IMG/VR virus record: IMGVR_UViG_3300017903_000773
Coordinates: 1-37,349 of that record
DNA: 37,349 nt
Direction: 5' to 3' (one strand)
Origin: a virus
Taxonomy: Duplodnaviria > Caudoviricetes
The first letter of the stretch is position 1, and the number at the start of each line of letters is the position of its first letter. Below, in pieces: positions 1,672 through 28,960 of the stretch. The notes under the pieces were generated by a model. That model was not told the DNA's origin. It made no database searches and saw nothing but the letters and a program-made list of their open reading frames with translations. The translations under genes and the position numbers were made by a program.

Positions 1672-2019
1672 ATGGAATATATTTGGAAACAAGACGCAAT
1701 AAATCATGCAAAACGATGTGACCCAGAGGAGTGTTGCGGAATTATTGGTAAAAAAAATAATAAGGAAAAATATTATCCTTGTAAAAACATATCAAATGAA
1801 TTTAAAGCAGAATCTTTTGTAATAGAGCCTTTGGACTGGGCAAAAGTTGAGGATTCTGTAGATGAGATTACAGGTATTGTTCATAGTCACCCACAAAACA
1901 TTTTAGAGTTTTCTGAGTCTGATAAATATAGCTGTAAGGCAATAGATTTAATTTTTTATCTCGTTTCGCCAAAATCAGATAAAATAGCAGTAATGAGACC
2001 TGATGAAATAGATGCTTAA
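1672..2019 (+). CDS. Tail assembly protein K-like, JAB/MPN (Mov34) domain only
   Basis: PEECCG and the JAMM motif HSHP-x6-S-x2-D. Only 115 aa, with no NlpC/P60 domain. Confidence 0.85.
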   Translation: MEYIWKQDAINHAKRCDPEECCGIIGKKNNKEKYYPCKNISNEFKAESFVIEPLDWAKVEDSVDEITGIVHSHPQNILEFSESDKYSCKAIDLIFYLVSPKSDKIAVMRPDEIDA

Positions 2020-9691: not shown

Positions 9692-10234
9692 ATGGCTTTT
9701 TTATTAAACGGAAAACCATTAGCAGTTGATGTTCCCTTTACAGTAGGGGATGTTAATTACCCTGCTAACTGGTTAAGATTATCTTCTGCACAGGAGAAAA
9801 AAGATCTTGGTATTACTGAGGTTGCTGATGCTCCAACGTATGATTCACGTTTTTATTGGAATGATGGCACTGCAAAGACTCTTACAGATACAAACGAAGT
9901 TGATGAGAATGGTGACCCATTATTAGATGAGAATGGAAATCAGGTTGTTACTTTAGGTGTTAAGTCTGTATTAAAAGCACAGGAAAAAGCAACTGCTGGT
10001 TCTTTATTAGCAACATATGATTGGTACGTTGTAAGAAAAGCAGAAAAATCTACTGCAATACCAACAGCTATCACAACTTATCGTGATGCCGTCAGAACAG
10101 CTTGTAATACAAGGGAAACAGAGATTGATGCCTGTTCAGATACTGCAGCTTTAGTAACTCTTTACGGATCAACAGAAACAGATGGTGTTGTAACACCTAA
10201 CATGACACAATATCCAGACGATCCTAACGCTTAA
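9692..10234 (+). CDS. Putative tail fibre assembly chaperone
   Basis: Follows the fibre gene; YPANWLRL and LLATYDWYVVRKAE...ITTYRDAVR are Tfa-like motifs. Confidence 0.65.
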   Translation: MAFLLNGKPLAVDVPFTVGDVNYPANWLRLSSAQEKKDLGITEVADAPTYDSRFYWNDGTAKTLTDTNEVDENGDPLLDENGNQVVTLGVKSVLKAQEKATAGSLLATYDWYVVRKAEKSTAIPTAITTYRDAVRTACNTRETEIDACSDTAALVTLYGSTETDGVVTPNMTQYPDDPNA

Positions 10235-10355
10235 GTTCCTGCATTTGTCTAGTCATTATTCCCATAGTGACGTAGAGAGGGGATAGGGCTACAATAAGCA
10301 GTAATACAAGCACACTTGAAAAAGATAGTGCTTTTAAAATTGCAAATTTAATCAT
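10224..10355 (-). CDS. Small membrane peptide, 43 aa (MIKFAILKALSFSSVLVLLLIVALSPLYVTMGIMTRQMQELKR)
   Basis: Manually translated, below the ORF-track cutoff. Has one long hydrophobic segment and fills the otherwise empty gap. Confidence 0.6.
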   Translation of the reverse strand: MIKFAILKALSFSSVLVLLLIVALSPLYVTMGIMTRQMQELKR

Positions 10356-10572
10356 GTTTCAAAAAATTGCTAATATTCTTAGCATCGTTTCATTTGTAAT
10401 GGTAGCTTCCATGAGTGGTGGAACGTACTTTGCATATAAATATGTAACATCAGAACAGTTTAAAGCAAGAGTAATGAATAAGATCCTTGGGAATGTTCAA
10501 AACATGATGCCAAAAGTATTAGATCAGGAATTACCAAAAGTTACTGGCCCATCAATGCCGATCATTAAATGA
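10354..10572 (+). CDS. Hypothetical N-terminally anchored membrane protein
   Basis: Hydrophobic N-terminus (ILSIVSFVMVASMSGGTYFAY); resembles small conserved cyanophage proteins (from recall). Confidence 0.7.
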   Translation: MFQKIANILSIVSFVMVASMSGGTYFAYKYVTSEQFKARVMNKILGNVQNMMPKVLDQELPKVTGPSMPIIK

Positions 10573-10796
10573 TCTTTGGATTTTTAAAAAACCTAGTTAA
10601 ATACTATATAGATAAATTAATTCATTGGATGCGTATGACAAAATTTAATTTAGAGCTTGATAATGACATAAAAAAATATCACGAAAAAATGGATAAAAAA
10701 GTAAAAAAACCTAAGATTATAGAGAAAGGTACTTTTGGAAAAGATGGTTGGTCTATTTCTATTGGAGATATGAAAGATGGAAATACCAAAGATTGA
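10569..10796 (+). CDS. Hypothetical protein
   Basis: ATGA-coupled to the upstream ORF and overlaps the next ORF. Confidence 0.55.
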   Translation: MIFGFLKNLVKYYIDKLIHWMRMTKFNLELDNDIKKYHEKMDKKVKKPKIIEKGTFGKDGWSISIGDMKDGNTKD

Positions 10797-11421
10797 TATT
10801 CCACAAATAAGAATAAAAGAGATTGATATTCCAAAAATACGCAAATGGGAAGTTCATAGACCTACATTAGATGTCATTCTTAAGCCTGTCGTAGATATAC
10901 CAGCTTGTGTTGATGCTCATAGAAATAATTTACCTAGTCTTATTGGAAAAGATGAAAAAGGTACATATCAAGCCTGTGGGACGTTTGATATACCAAGTTT
11001 TGAACCTTTGGAATATAATCCTAATAATTTTATTTACACAGCCCCTTTAAGCCCTCAGAGCCAAGAGCAAAAAGATATACAACCAGAACAGCCAAAGATT
11101 CCAGAAACAAAAAAAGAAAAAGTTACAGTTGAACCTTGCCCACCCAAAGATGCACAATTTCGGGAAGGGGATTACAGAAATGATAAAAAAATTGAAAGGC
11201 TGGTAAAATATGAAAAAAAAACTATAGGGGGTTCATGTGACCCGATCTGGGAAAAAGTACCATTCAGAGAAAGCTTTATTGGTACACCTCAAGCACTCAT
11301 TTCTACTGCTGTTATCGGTGTGGTTGCTGGTGGCTCTGCGCTTTTGGCTCCTTTAATAAAAAAATTAATTTCTGAAATATTTAAAAAAATAAAGAAAAAA
11401 CTTAGTAAACCTAATTCTTAA
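10777..11421 (+). CDS. Hypothetical Pro/Cys-containing protein with C-terminal transmembrane segment
   Basis: N-terminal IxIP repeats, four Cys, TM segment ALISTAVIGVVAGGSALLAPLI and a Lys-rich tail. Confidence 0.72.
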   Translation: MEIPKIDIPQIRIKEIDIPKIRKWEVHRPTLDVILKPVVDIPACVDAHRNNLPSLIGKDEKGTYQACGTFDIPSFEPLEYNPNNFIYTAPLSPQSQEQKDIQPEQPKIPETKKEKVTVEPCPPKDAQFREGDYRNDKKIERLVKYEKKTIGGSCDPIWEKVPFRESFIGTPQALISTAVIGVVAGGSALLAPLIKKLISEIFKKIKKKLSKPNS

Positions 11422-12070
11422 TTTGTAATTTATGTGTATGTGGTAGAACTTGCCCTTTTTTTGGACTGACAATTACATCCTCACATAGTTTGTGGTAAAT
11501 ACTTGATTTTGCATATTCAATTCCAGCAAGTTTCAATTCACCACAATTTTTAAGTCTTGCTAGTTCGTAATTTAGCCTTTCTTTAGACAATATTTGTCTT
11601 TGTATCTTTTCTTGTGTTGTAGCACTTTTTAAGCAAGCATCTTGAAATCTTCTATCTAATGGAATATTAAAAGTCAAAGCTACACCAATATTTAAACCTA
11701 GTGAATCTTTATTGCCACTATAATTTTCTTGATAAAAAAGAATTTCACCCGCATTTGTAAGGTTCCCATCATCATCTACCGCTGGATTATAGTAGGGAGT
11801 TTCATAGGTGTAATCCATAGGGCGTTTGATATTTAAATTTGAATATGCAAAGGGGCTTATAGACATTTGAGGGCCAGAACAAACTATTCCATTTCCATAA
11901 CTATTTTCGACCATTGGGCCGCCAAGCACTTGTGTAGCAAAGTTTGATACACTTCCAGACGCGGATGCTTGTGGAGCCGCGGTATTTGAGGTATTAGCAA
12001 ATACTGGACTCCCAAACAATAATCCTATTATTGGGAGAATATTGTAGTTGTATCTGTAACGCTTTCTGAT
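11411..12070 (-). CDS. Putative secreted protein (start uncertain; ORF open to 12196)
   Basis: Signal-peptide-like IRKRYRYNYNILPIIGLLFGSPVFA, then SASGSVSNFATQV, NGIVCSGP, LNIGVALTFNIPLD and LNYELARLKNC. Confidence 0.7.
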   Translation of the reverse strand: MRKRYRYNYNILPIIGLLFGSPVFANTSNTAAPQASASGSVSNFATQVLGGPMVENSYGNGIVCSGPQMSISPFAYSNLNIKRPMDYTYETPYYNPAVDDDGNLTNAGEILFYQENYSGNKDSLGLNIGVALTFNIPLDRRFQDACLKSATTQEKIQRQILSKERLNYELARLKNCGELKLAGIEYAKSSIYHKLCEDVIVSPKKGQVLPHTHKLQIKN

Positions 12071-12450
12071 TGAATTGTTCTGGTTATATCTGTTATAGAT
12101 TGAACCCCACTTGGAGTATATGTCTCTACAAATTGAAAAGCACCTTGATTTGTTAAAGTCCAATTTGGTTTCTGGTTTAAATCTAAATCTGTCCACGTAT
12201 AAGTCGTCCCGTTTAGGTTTTGATTACTGGTAGTGATAGGAGGTGTAATTGAAGTTCCATCCATTTTAATTCCAGAGCCAGAAACACTGTATTGAAATCC
12301 ACCATATTCTGTAGTGCGGATCTGTTCTGTGATATTTGTGATTGTTTCTGTTCGAGAAGTACTTGAGCCTTGTGAAAAATTTGGTACCACAGGGACAGCA
12401 TAGACAGGGCTAGATATAAGAAAAACAAACGAAAATATCCCCCACATCAA
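12028..12450 (-). CDS. Putative secreted Thr/Ser-rich protein
   Basis: Signal peptide ending PVYA, followed by VPVVPNFSQGSSTSRTET; beta-strand-like composition. Confidence 0.75.
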   Translation of the reverse strand: MMWGIFSFVFLISSPVYAVPVVPNFSQGSSTSRTETITNITEQIRTTEYGGFQYSVSGSGIKMDGTSITPPITTSNQNLNGTTYTWTDLDLNQKPNWTLTNQGAFQFVETYTPSGVQSITDITRTIQSESVTDTTTIFSQ

Positions 12451-12932
12451 TCAACAGTTAAATCTGTGACAAATTGACCAGTAAGAACTACCCCTGTTCC
12501 TGTTCCACCTGTAAGAGTCATTGTGTGATGGTCTAAAGTTACCGCTGCTGTACCTACTGAACCAGCGGCAGTCGAAGTCAAATCACTAAAGTTACCTACT
12601 GTCCCGACAGTTGGGGCTGATCCAGCAGTAGCATCACCCTCAAGGTATGACTGAGTAAAGCTAAAAGTTTCACCAGCTGTTGTTTGTGTTGCACTTGGCA
12701 TAGTCACTGCTGGAACTCCATTTGTAACAGATCCAAAGCCACCCACGCTCGCAGCGTCACCGCTTGTAGTTGTTATATTTGTGCCGCTTATGCTATAAGA
12801 TGAGCCGATTTTGTCTGCTGACGTTGCGGCACTGAGGCTTTCTAATTTGACTGATGAGGTTATTGTACTCTGAATATCAGAATAAGCAGCTGATGGAATA
12901 CAGAGTGCAGCTAATAGTAAGATTTTTTTCAT
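12447..12932 (-). CDS. Putative secreted Thr/Ser/Gly-rich protein
   Basis: Classical signal peptide MKKILLLAALCIPSAAYS; mature part rich in T/S/G/A. Confidence 0.78.
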   Translation of the reverse strand: MKKILLLAALCIPSAAYSDIQSTITSSVKLESLSAATSADKIGSSYSISGTNITTTSGDAASVGGFGSVTNGVPAVTMPSATQTTAGETFSFTQSYLEGDATAGSAPTVGTVGNFSDLTSTAAGSVGTAAVTLDHHTMTLTGGTGTGVVLTGQFVTDLTVD

Positions 12933-13168
12933 TTGGTGCTTGCTTTAGGGTTCTTATTATCTACTATAGTATCTTTTTTCTTTTTTATCGAAAAACCTAG
13001 TGATGCAGTACTTGCTGAAAAAATACTTGCAATAAATGTCGGATCAAAATCTACAATCTTTTTACCAGATGGAGGTTCATAGTATGAAAGAGACAAAAGT
13101 GTTGCTGACCATAAAAGCACACAAACTTTGACAATGGTTTCAACTTTGCTGGGTTCTTGATCTTCCAT
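12929..13168 (-). CDS. Small two-TM membrane protein (holin-like topology)
   Basis: Two hydrophobic segments (IVKVCVLLWSATLLSLSYY; FIASIFSASTASLGFSI) and a KKKKD basic tail. Confidence 0.65.
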   Translation of the reverse strand: MEDQEPSKVETIVKVCVLLWSATLLSLSYYEPPSGKKIVDFDPTFIASIFSASTASLGFSIKKKKDTIVDNKNPKASTK

Positions 13169-13231
13169 AAGATTAAGGGTTTCTTGTTTAATACTGGCAT
13201 ATTAGCTATGTTTGGAAAAACAAACAAATCA

Positions 13232-13396
13232 ATGATTCGTATTCTCAAACCTATCCTTTTAACTTTCTGTAAAACAAATGCAGTTAAAAAGTTAATTCTT
13301 GACCTTTTGAAAGCTTTGGTCAAAACTACAGACAACACAGTAGACGACAAAATCGTGGCAATTATAGAAAGTAAATTATGGCCTGATCTTAAATGA
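13232..13396 (+). CDS. Small amphipathic hypothetical protein (MIRILKPILLTF...TDNTVDDKIV)
   Basis: Likely start is ATG 13232 within the ORF 13157-13396; ATGA-coupled to the next gene. Confidence 0.68.
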   Translation: MIRILKPILLTFCKTNAVKKLILDLLKALVKTTDNTVDDKIVAIIESKLWPDLK

Positions 13397-26409: not shown

Positions 26410-28677
26410 ATGGATACTCCAGAGGTATTTTTTAGGGAAACTATTGATCTTAATAGGTACAGTAATTCTGTTGCAAAGAAATATGCTGTCACTTATAACG
26501 AAATAATAGTCAATGCAGCCAAACAACTTAAGCAGATTGATCTTAGACAACAAGCCGCAGATGCTGGTGTAGTAATCGCACCTCAGACAAGGAAAAGACT
26601 AAGAGCAATAATCAAACAATCAAAAGATAGTCTCGCAACATGGTCAACTAAATCGGCAAGAGATTTTAAAAAAGAACTTCAAGGGGTAACGATATTACAG
26701 AAAGATTTTATTGAAAACGAATTGAAAAAAGTTACAGCATCTGGTGATGTACCGATCAACAGCGTTGCAATAAGTCCCAAGTATGCAGAGTCAGTTATTA
26801 TGACTGATCCATCAAAAGTAAATATTTTTACAAGTAAAGCTTTTACAGAAGATAATTTTGTAAACTTTGGCTCTGGTAAATTTAGTCTTACTGCTACACA
26901 AGGGGCTGCAATAAGGCTGCCAAATGGCACAACAGTAAGCAAAGCATTTAGAGGTTTAGCAGAATCTTCGGCAGAAAGATTAGATTTAGCTGTCAGATCA
27001 GGAGTGTTTGCTGGTGAGTCACTAGATCAGATTACTAGGAGACTTGTTGGTAGGCTTGAATTTGCAGATTTTGGCCCTTTATCTGTTAAGCAGTTAGCTC
27101 TTGCTGGAGGAGAACTTACAAAAGTAGCTAATAATCAAATCTCAACCATTGTTAGAACATCTGTTAATCAAGTTACGAATCAGGCATCACAAGCTGTATA
27201 TGCAGCCAATAAAAAGGTTGCCCCTAAATATGAATATGTTGCAACGCTAGACTCAAGGACAAGTCCGATATGTCAGAGGTTAGATGGCCAGATATTTGAT
27301 TACAACAAAGGCCCTACACCACCTCAACATTTTAATTGTCGATCAACTACTGTCCCTGTTGTTGACTTTGATGGTCTGCAAAAGAAATATCCAACGCTTG
27401 AAAAACCACCAGCAACTAAACTTGATACCAGACCAAGTATTACAGGAAGAGTTCCACAAGGAACACCATACGGCAACTGGCTTTTGCAACAGGATAAAAA
27501 GCTGCAAGTTAAGACTTTAGGTAATGAAGGAAAGGTAAATTTCTTTAAAAAGCTTGCAAAAAAAGAAGGTTCTGGACAGGCAGCGTTGCGGAAGATGATA
27601 AGAACAGATGGAAGCGAAAGAAGTTTGAAGGACTTGGAGAGATTGTATGGCAAGCCCAGAGATATAACTATCAAAACAAAAACTCCTAAACCTGTTGCAA
27701 AACCTGTTGCATTTGAACGAAGGCTTGTAGATTCAAGCCCAGAGCAATTAAGAAAAGATGGCAGGGCGTTAATGAATGAAGTAGGTGAGTTTGATACAGC
27801 TAAACTTAAAAAATTAAATGATAACTTTAGATCGGCTGCGGCAAAAAGTGGTTCTAATTTGAAGCCAGAGTTGGCTGATAAGTTACAGGCAGACTTTGAA
27901 AAAGCTAAAAATGAATACTTAAATTATCGTGGACAGATTTTACAAAAATTTGAAAAATTAAAAAATAAAATGCTAGAAACACCCCTCAGTCAATCGCAAA
28001 TAGATGGTTTTGTAAAAAATACGAAGATTACAACATGGCAAGCTGCACAAAAAACACAAATTAGGGGTTATTTAAGTGAATATATAAGAATGTTCAATGG
28101 TAATGGTTTTATTGCTGCCCCTAATGGTGTTCCACCTATAACAAAAATAGGCAAAGCACAAAGGGCATCAAACAGTTACTGGAAAGGTCAAATGTCAACA
28201 AGTGGTGGAAGAAACTATGTAAGTAAATCAACGACTTTCCATGAAATAACTCACTCAGTAGAGGTAATGAACCCTAAATTAAATAACTATATGAATGAGT
28301 GGAAATTTAATAAAGGATTTACAGATAAAACAAAAATTCAAGAGGTTATTCATAAGAAAAAAGCTCTTGCATCTAGCGGTGCATCTGATTTGGCAAAGAA
28401 AAAACCAGTATATAAGCTAAAAGATATTACTCATATCAATTATGATGCCAGAGAAAAAGCGTTTGTTGATAAATATTTAGACCCTTACATGGGTAAAATA
28501 TACGAGCCAGATAATTTTGTTAAAAGGTTTGGTATTGATGGTTCACCAGAAGCTTCAGAAGTTTTAACAATGACAGTGCAACAATTTGCTGATGTAGAAA
28601 ATATGCCAAAAGTATTAGCTGACCACCCCGATCTTTTTGAACTTATAGTTGGTATGTCTAGGGCAAAGGGTCTGTAG
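26410..28677 (+). CDS. Head morphogenesis protein (MuF/SPP1 gp7 family) with C-terminal HEXXH metallopeptidase-like extension
   Basis: IVRTSVNQV, YEYVATLDSRTSPIC and PPQHFNCRS (MuF); Pro/Lys linker; HEITH at 28240-28254. Confidence 0.88.
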   Translation: MDTPEVFFRETIDLNRYSNSVAKKYAVTYNEIIVNAAKQLKQIDLRQQAADAGVVIAPQTRKRLRAIIKQSKDSLATWSTKSARDFKKELQGVTILQKDFIENELKKVTASGDVPINSVAISPKYAESVIMTDPSKVNIFTSKAFTEDNFVNFGSGKFSLTATQGAAIRLPNGTTVSKAFRGLAESSAERLDLAVRSGVFAGESLDQITRRLVGRLEFADFGPLSVKQLALAGGELTKVANNQISTIVRTSVNQVTNQASQAVYAANKKVAPKYEYVATLDSRTSPICQRLDGQIFDYNKGPTPPQHFNCRSTTVPVVDFDGLQKKYPTLEKPPATKLDTRPSITGRVPQGTPYGNWLLQQDKKLQVKTLGNEGKVNFFKKLAKKEGSGQAALRKMIRTDGSERSLKDLERLYGKPRDITIKTKTPKPVAKPVAFERRLVDSSPEQLRKDGRALMNEVGEFDTAKLKKLNDNFRSAAAKSGSNLKPELADKLQADFEKAKNEYLNYRGQILQKFEKLKNKMLETPLSQSQIDGFVKNTKITTWQAAQKTQIRGYLSEYIRMFNGNGFIAAPNGVPPITKIGKAQRASNSYWKGQMSTSGGRNYVSKSTTFHEITHSVEVMNPKLNNYMNEWKFNKGFTDKTKIQEVIHKKKALASSGASDLAKKKPVYKLKDITHINYDAREKAFVDKYLDPYMGKIYEPDNFVKRFGIDGSPEASEVLTMTVQQFADVENMPKVLADHPDLFELIVGMSRAKGL

Positions 28678-28960
28678 AGTATCCAGTGGGATAGTTTTGT
28701 AAATCTTTGACTGCTTGTAATCTTGCTTTCTCTGGTATTTTTATATTTGACAACCCAACTGAATCAACGGCTGCATTTATAACATCTGCAATATCACACC
28801 TGTCTTTATCAAACAAATGACCATGCACTCCAAATAATCCTTCTTTTACATCATTATTCCAAAACTCGACAGCATCTTTTGAACCTACAGCCTTTGCTGT
28901 TTGTTTAGAATGTTGTATTTCAATATCCCCTAAGGGGGTGGTGATAGTTATAGTAAGCAT
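28658..28960 (-). CDS. Hypothetical protein, candidate immunity protein for the MuF toxin domain
   Basis: 100-aa ORF convergent with and overlapping the MuF 3' end; the only minus-strand gene in the head-tail block. Confidence 0.6.
   Translation of the reverse strand: MLTITITTPLGDIEIQHSKQTAKAVGSKDAVEFWNNDVKEGLFGVHGHLFDKDRCDIADVINAAVDSVGLSNIKIPEKARLQAVKDLQNYPTGYSTDPLP

Follow-up and report, generated by a model that had tools for sequence, protein, structure and literature searches.

An envelope gene cassette in the lysis slot of marine cyanophages, proposed as an enzyme-free lysis machine

The window considered here is a whole stretch of 37,349 nucleotides (nt), IMG/VR record IMGVR_UViG_3300017903_000773 (Duplodnaviria; Caudoviricetes), and its positions 10224 to 13396 hold nine genes, most of them for envelope-type proteins. 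Six correspond to T4-GC clusters 237, 236, 235, 234, 414 and 218 of phage P-RSM4 (GC237 and so on, below), in a like convergent layout. We propose that this cassette is a late lysis machine that spans the envelope without any enzyme and takes the place of the endolysin cassette, and give this reading a probability of about one half. The evidence comprises the gene set; its synteny in phages of three tail morphotypes; a late-promoter motif in the myovirus copies; the genomic slot; near-exclusion with small lysins; a nested start codon; and models of two monomers.

The original prediction was of an uncharacterised envelope machine, either a non-canonical system for lysis or outer-membrane disruption, or a surface fibre or pore for superinfection exclusion. 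An envelope module common to unrelated cyanophages is what was found, and its position, distribution and late promoter favour non-canonical lysis; the fibre half gained no positive support. No known lysis or pore family accommodates any member of the cassette. The cassette is a conserved candidate that alternates with endolysins, making lysis testable in P-SSP7, Syn9-type and MED4-type phages, which kill major primary producers of the ocean. T7-like cyanophages can reportedly be engineered (PMC8776855).

A genome with no detected wall hydrolase

The genome is complete and circular (about 37.2 kb; its first 141 bases are repeated at the end) and belongs to a lambda-like siphovirus of Prochlorococcus type. 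Pfam and PHROGs scans assigned terminase, portal, head, tail and gpJ-like tip genes, and the locus is syntenic with that of Prochlorococcus phage MED4-184. As expected from the first reading, no endolysin was recognised: peptidoglycan-hydrolase families gave no match in Pfam (70 open reading frame (ORF) queries: 13, 54 and 3 window ORFs), in PHROGs (68 window ORFs: 13 and 55), or in NCBIfam (24 window ORFs). A novel peptidoglycan hydrolase could still be encoded. The lambda gpK-like tail protein (window 1672-2019) consists of the 115-residue JAB part alone, so the genome seems to lack even a virion hydrolase-like domain. In a cassette-less relative, the complete siphovirus G004, the gpK-like protein has 235 residues (locus L507:4472-5176) and a second domain; in gpK itself this second domain is NlpC/P60.

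A gene set common to three tail types

Comparison by tblastn with the P-RSM4 and S-SCSM1 loci gave 30-44% identity, with gene order kept. GC235 occurs in 429 isolate records, whose labels all read Synechococcus, Cyanophage, Prochlorococcus, Marine or uncultured; GC236 occurs in 414, every one from a picocyanobacterial or marine phage. Conservation of GC235 is far above chance. T7-like podoviruses with both genes include P-SSP7 and S-TIP37. Co-occurrence was counted in loci anchored on GC235, partial contigs included: 81 from siphoviruses, 82 from myoviruses, and 81 from podoviruses. In that order, GC236 lies nearby in 78, 77 and 76 loci, and GC218 in 63, 52 and 68; GC234 accompanies GC235 in 79/81 siphovirus and 75/82 myovirus loci, and GC414 in 72/81 and 63/82. 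(Counts for GC237 were not used, because its profile cross-reacts with GC236.) The podovirus isolates examined carry a short cassette: a short, Cys-free GC234-like protein, GC218, GC236, and GC235, with no GC237 seen. The 43-residue peptide and the gene at 10569-10796 appear in siphoviruses only. Apart from these two genes, the expectation that unrelated cyanophages share the module is borne out.

A host origin was rejected. A one-pattern genome scan found 11 loci in metagenome-assembled-genome or single-cell records of mixed taxa; all carry further cassette genes, which makes phage DNA their likely source.

As a set of hypothetical genes the cluster was already published in 2010, with no function given. 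The passage on it in Sullivan et al. 2010 (PMC3037559) reports hypothetical T4-GC 218, 219, 234, 235 and 237 together with a "plasmid stability protein" in 15/16 cyanomyoviruses (missing in S-PM2), which are the same genes in the same convergent layout as here. That passage treats the cluster as a mobile cassette, assigns no function, and is silent on envelope targeting, podoviruses and siphoviruses, alternation with lysins, and the nested start. T4-GC219, part of the published cluster, is absent from the present genome; in myovirus cassettes (L001:7461-8063) its product is N-anchored and carries a hydrophobic, glycine-rich hairpin at the C-terminus, and neither Pfam nor NCBIfam gives a match. 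Literature searches, in which lysis papers were judged by their titles and subscription papers lay outside reach, found no paper assigning the cluster a function, none for DUF6322, DUF6450, PF19847, PF20048 or the phrog identifiers, and nothing related on an overlapping gene with a signal peptide in cyanophages.

A late-promoter motif, and virion content

The published late-promoter consensus is NATAAATA (PMC2984593). It was searched as [AC]TAAATA, within 80 nt upstream of the myovirus copies. The motif precedes 49/57 copies of GC237 and 25/40 of GC218, compared with 0/61 for GC234, 4/52 for GC414, and a background of 212 in 12,762 tiles.

The cassette proteins might be ordinary minor virion or ejection-tube parts, a possibility that the original prediction had named as refuting it. 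The cassette adjoins tail genes, and for GC236 the top Foldseek rows, though not significant, are podovirus collar tubes. Against this reading stand the signal peptides and membrane anchors and the distribution across three tail types; none of the T4-GC clusters of the cassette is listed in the extracted text of virion-proteome Table S8 (PMC3037559), a non-detection that is not proof. We regard this reading as highly improbable.

Alternation with lysins

In P-SSP7 and 9515-10a the cassette lies between the tail fibres and terS; the cassette-less phages S-CBP1, P60, S-CBP2 and S-CBP4 have a lysin in that slot. The cassette also follows the tail fibres in the present genome and in MED4-184. Among 160 T7-like loci anchored on terS, the 87 with at least 2.5 kb upstream were used (73 were dropped as too short) and were searched with three lysin queries: 46 contain only a lysin, 37 only the cassette, 4 neither, and none both. 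Whole records were also compared. Nine of the 11 without GC235 encode a lysin in an ORF below 450 residues, including S-PM2 (where a C39-like peptidase adjoins the lysozyme), ACG-2014f, S-H34, and P-SS2. Of the 12 with GC235, two have a small lysin; four have hydrolase domains only in ORFs of 849-954 residues; and six have none of the tested types. Twelve near-complete contigs divide into seven with GC235 and no small C39 or GH73 lysin, four with a lysin and no GC235, and one with neither. A single host, WH7803, has phages of both types: S-SCSM1, with the cassette, versus S-PM2 and S-CBP42.

Several points weigh against a lysis machine that replaces endolysins. The podovirus contrast is between two clades, and therefore reflects few independent events; the 23 whole records were partly chosen for lysin matches, and five lysin types were tested in all. 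DSL-LC02 has a full cassette along with C39 and lysozyme genes, DSL-LC03 has GC235 and a lysozyme, and S-CAM7 combines lysins with a divergent two-gene form of the cassette. Syn5, S-TIP28 and G004 have neither a cassette nor a detected lysin (32/41 ORFs were scanned in G004); undetected lysis routes therefore exist, and a missing endolysin proves little. The cassette carriers S-RIM2, P-RSM4, S-SCSM1 and G015 contain hydrolase domains in ORFs of 849-1025 residues, which could act at lysis, and PMC9602691 suggests S-SCSM1 ORF214 as an endolysin. The myovirus cluster sits among replication and host-like genes. The late-motif pattern was widened after the top 7-mers had been seen. Finally, no catalytic motif or significant structural match was found in any subunit.

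The cassette might instead be an accessory to lysis, with an outer-membrane (spanin-substitute) or timing role, while the wall is cut by a hydrolase that is virion-borne or has escaped recognition; in that case the small amphipathic protein (13157-13396), whose gene is the only one left in the slot of Syn5, S-TIP28 and G004, could be the core of lysis. Nested genes that adjoin terS in the manner of Rz/Rz1, and the long hydrolase-bearing ORFs of several carriers, agree with this. However, a spanin substitute would be expected in company with endolysins, and in the 87 slots the two alternate instead; in addition, no hydrolase domain was found in this genome, virion genes included. We consider an accessory role quite unlikely. 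The amphipathic family occurs in phages that have the cassette, that have lysins, or that have neither (cassette-less phages that carry it include Syn5, S-TIP28, ACG-2014f, and S-H34), and it may be the lysis-slot gene that cyanophages share most universally.

Parts of the cassette

All nine predicted ORFs were located where expected (Table 1), and hydropathy confirms most of their foreseen envelope features: two hydrophobic segments in GC218, N-terminal signal-type segments in GC237 and GC236 (43% and 38% Thr, Ser or Gly (T/S/G), respectively), an N-anchored protein (GC414), a C-anchored Cys/Pro protein (GC234), and the 43-residue membrane peptide. The gene at 10569-10796 departs from the prediction: its product has no membrane segment and is soluble. 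Signal peptides were read from sequence and hydropathy.

Table 1. Features of the cassette and its neighbours in the window (TM, transmembrane; aa, amino acids).
Position	Strand	Feature	Basis or detail
10224..10355	-	43-aa single-TM peptide, siphovirus-only (69/81 loci)	hydropathy, locus survey
10354..10572	+	N-anchored membrane protein, phrog_568/T4-GC414	hydropathy; database label "plasmid stability"
10569..10796	+	basic soluble 75-aa protein, siphovirus-only insert (43/81 loci)	hydropathy, locus survey
10777..11421	+	Pro-rich 4-Cys protein, phrog_570/T4-GC234	C-terminal membrane anchor, basic tail; 11% Pro
11411..12196	-	exported protein, phrog_848/T4-GC235	PHROGs; predicted outer-membrane ring subunit
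12028..12196	-	nested overlap, 169 nt: GC235 begins in -1 frame of GC236	xTG from conserved GC236 Trp codon
12028..12450	-	exported DUF6322 protein, phrog_650/T4-GC236	Pfam E 1.3e-28
12447..12932	-	exported T/S/G-rich beta protein, phrog_564/T4-GC237	PHROGs; DUF6322 paralogue
12929..13168	-	two-TM small protein, DUF6450/phrog_721/T4-GC218, holin-like candidate	Pfam E 1.3e-17; hydropathy
13157..13396	+	small amphipathic protein, phrog_2738/402	PHROGs

GC218 has 79 residues, and its second hydrophobic segment is weak (1.53). It matches no holin family in PHROGs or Pfam; as a small protein with multiple membrane segments and charged termini it has a feature of holins, and timed permeabilisation of the inner membrane is its candidate function. 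GC237 and GC236 are paralogues: HHalign pairs them at 97.6% (E 3.3e-12), and the Atlas cluster of GC237 is DUF6322. GC414 has no Pfam or NCBIfam family above cut-off, and phrog_568 appears to carry its "plasmid stability" label without support.

In GC235, a basic n-region of 52 residues precedes an h-region ending in VFA; the mature part has a 41-residue helix and, as predicted, four Cys, which are conserved, and an amphipathic strand, LNIGVALTFNIPLD, whose hydrophobic/polar alternation holds across 75 homologues. The basic n-region and long helix would suit a type II inner-membrane protein with a periplasmic coiled coil, but the h-region is short, with a conserved AxA site at which cleavage may occur. 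The C-terminus bears a conserved PHxH motif.

A start nested in the neighbouring gene

The 11411 gene (GC235) had been read as simply coupled to its neighbour, which proved wrong: it begins at a GTG at 12196, 169 nt inside the gene at 12028-12450. This start, within the DUF6322 gene and in its -1 frame, is a new feature. Close to its signal peptide GC235 has no canonical start: in all of 220 pairs, its frame lacks ATG, GTG and TTG within the last 30 codons of GC236. In all but two of 222 pairs (220), this frame reaches back into GC236 by 172 nt or more without a stop; of the other two, one is a deletion fusion and one a frameshifted contig. (The fusion, L020:1343-2197 (P0001), puts GC235 in frame behind the N-terminal portion of GC236, and is either a natural variant or an assembly artefact.)

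Stops in the -1 frame were counted in representatives below 90% nucleotide identity (26 from siphoviruses, 49 from myoviruses, 44 from podoviruses), with expectations from codon usage. The last 54 codons of GC236 contain none, versus 112, 146 and 233 expected, respectively (about 490 in total). Just upstream of this zone the counts match expectation, with 25 stops in siphoviruses (29.5 expected) and 66 in myoviruses (61.7 expected). The podoviruses are depleted further upstream too, with 15 stops versus 133 expected upstream of codon -70, where a second Trp-derived ATG occurs. The boundary of the stop-free zone is an xTG derived from a conserved GC236 Trp codon: ATG in 48/48 myoviruses; ATG 18, TTG 7 and GTG 1 in siphoviruses; and ATG 37, GTG 5 and TTG 2 in podoviruses. 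Third-position divergence drops after the nested start in all three groups. Judged from these patterns of codons, translation of GC235 would begin at the Trp-codon start.

The arrangement was also sought in 113 further pairs, taken from 169 loci in which another gene served as anchor (two genomes enter twice): in 99 of these pairs, a Trp codon supplies a -1 start at least 21 codons before the GC236 stop. Seven pairs overlap briefly in +1 and have an ordinary signal peptide, three are coupled by 4 nt, and three lack a canonical start. The MED4-184 pair appears broken. In S-CAM7, the divergent GC236-like and GC235-like pair (L504:2413-3291, about 31 kb) has no overlap and lies far from the lysin genes.

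A programmed -1 frameshift, producing a GC236-GC235 fusion, is less likely, because stop suppression begins at the xTG and because variants have short signal peptides or 4-nt coupling. The codons themselves bear on this: the myovirus xTG is invariably ATG, and CTG is found at 0/26 siphovirus starts versus 10/26 at a second Trp. The podovirus depletion upstream of codon -70 would also be compatible with frameshifting.

The idea that the long basic n-region has a function of its own was rejected, since the start can lie anywhere between 17 and 69 codons ahead of the GC236 stop. The region is probably a by-product, because an NTG in the -1 frame arises from TGN codons only. The nested start also explains why GC235 annotation is inconsistent: the gene is truncated in P-SSP7 and unannotated in S-SCSM1.

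Structure models

The model of mature GC235 (75 sequences; predicted local distance difference test (pLDDT) 75.7, predicted template-modelling score (pTM) 0.40) is an elongated monomer: a disordered N-terminus, a long hairpin, and the 41-residue helix. Both hairpin strands alternate hydrophobic and polar residues (columns 44/46/50 and 101-113), and so resemble membrane-spanning strands; GC235 is predicted to be an outer-membrane ring subunit. The hairpin tip (window 11760-11790, minus strand) carries an acidic loop of DxDxDG type (DDDGN here, DLNDDG in P-RSM4, shortened in podovirus forms), a possible calcium site. Mature GC236 (32 sequences; pLDDT 81.8, pTM 0.46) was modelled with largely hydrophilic 23-residue strands at both ends; these strands may pair, and the protein is likely a tube or filament subunit.

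Fold searches with the two models gave no significant match in the Protein Data Bank (PDB). The top rows, all non-significant, are collar tubes, pore stems and the flagellar L ring, with a TM score of at most 0.27, or Z of at most 3.6 outside plain helix matches; they indicate shape, not family. The best Foldseek row for GC236 is podovirus collar tube 8egr_I (E 3.6e-3, TM score 0.27). Among the other rows, the FlgH ring has E 0.028, and the best VIA row has Z 3.6 and a root-mean-square deviation of 7.0 over 69 residues. A viral structure library returned five rows at E<=0.001, of which the two named are marine or Synechococcus phage proteins; Atlas matches are unnamed or DUF6322 clusters only. 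PDB sequence searches with three profiles found nothing below E 0.5. TolC, CsgG and curli subunits are in no match list, and absence from the lists is not exclusion.

By known features of the TolC repeat and CsgG, GC235 shares with the TolC repeat, CsgG and FlgH channels the order of amphipathic hairpin, then "PL", then long helix. GC236 would share very long paired strands with beta-barrel tubes such as the phi29 and Andhra collars and the stems of beta-pores. No sequence match to such channels or tubes was found, only the non-significant fold rows.

These shapes would also suit an export pore that has no part in lysis and bears a surface fibre or channel, on a curli-like logic, in which GC237 and GC236, as major and minor subunits, pass through a GC235 ring and serve superinfection exclusion, aggregation or solute uptake. 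The exported T/S/G-rich pair is paralogous and the GC235 model is ring-like; the coexistence of cassette and lysins in DSL-LC02, DSL-LC03 and S-CAM7, and a position near psbA in some myoviruses, fit as well. Yet an export pore predicts neither a common slot nor near-exclusion with lysins, and late rather than early promoters suit superinfection exclusion poorly. On balance we find it unlikely.

A model for lysis, and known cassettes

For the envelope-spanning lysis machine, the following sequence of events can be envisaged. GC218, perhaps with the amphipathic protein, would permeabilise the inner membrane and set the timing. GC237 and GC236 would be exported through Sec and then polymerise, via their long hydrophilic strands, into a periplasmic beta-tube. 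GC235 would be exported, disulphide-bonded and oligomerised, its amphipathic hairpin inserting into the outer membrane while the 41-residue helix stays periplasmic; the nested start would reduce its output relative to the tube subunits. GC234 and GC414 would anchor the assembly to the inner membrane, so that both membranes are linked and ruptured. Candidates for the breach of peptidoglycan are host autolysins, a long virion-associated hydrolase, and mechanical rupture. A broader claim is tentative, and we hold it to be possible rather than probable: in most marine Prochlorococcus and Synechococcus phages, whatever the tail type, a self-assembling beta-tube and an outer-membrane ring replace the endolysin, with no phage enzyme to cut the wall and with subunit ratios set by the nested start. 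If true, this would add a new lysis class for tailed phages.

Canonical holin-endolysin-spanin cassettes (T7 17.5/18.5/18.7; lambda S-R-Rz/Rz1) offer the obvious comparison. Like them, the present cassette is late, lies beside tail fibres and terS, and has a small two-TM protein, nested reading frames, a periplasmic protein with Cys and a long helix, and a Pro-rich partner. It differs in having no endolysin found, no lipobox (ten proteins scanned, over the first 40 residues of each), three signal peptides of cleavable type, and beta-hairpin subunits; in addition its Pro-rich protein, GC234, is C-anchored, unlike theirs. Compared with a two-component spanin, an overlapping pair is present (the -1 overlap in 220/222 pairs and 99/113 further ones), whereas the lipobox lipoprotein is absent. 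By the tested features the cassette is neither a spanin nor a canonical lysis cassette, though it likely does their job. PMC1079782 lists T7 3.5, 17.5 and 18.5 among the genes not identified in P-SSP7.

Other observations

Four further features were noted in passing. A lone, distant GC235-like exported protein lies directly upstream of terS on an S-CBP1-type podovirus contig (L297:5541-6014, plus strand), with no lysin detected in the locus; by eye it has the same pattern of Cys, amphipathic strand and helix. On a short contig (L417:1896-5537), a terS-like gene adjoins psbA, a haem-oxygenase-like ORF and a DoxX-like ORF (the latter two labels by eye). The cassette-less siphovirus G004 has three tandem phrog_1281-related genes within a run of inserted genes (L507:13894-16586). 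In the window itself, a lone minus-strand gene of 100 residues (28658-28960), which matches no family, stands within the head-gene operon.

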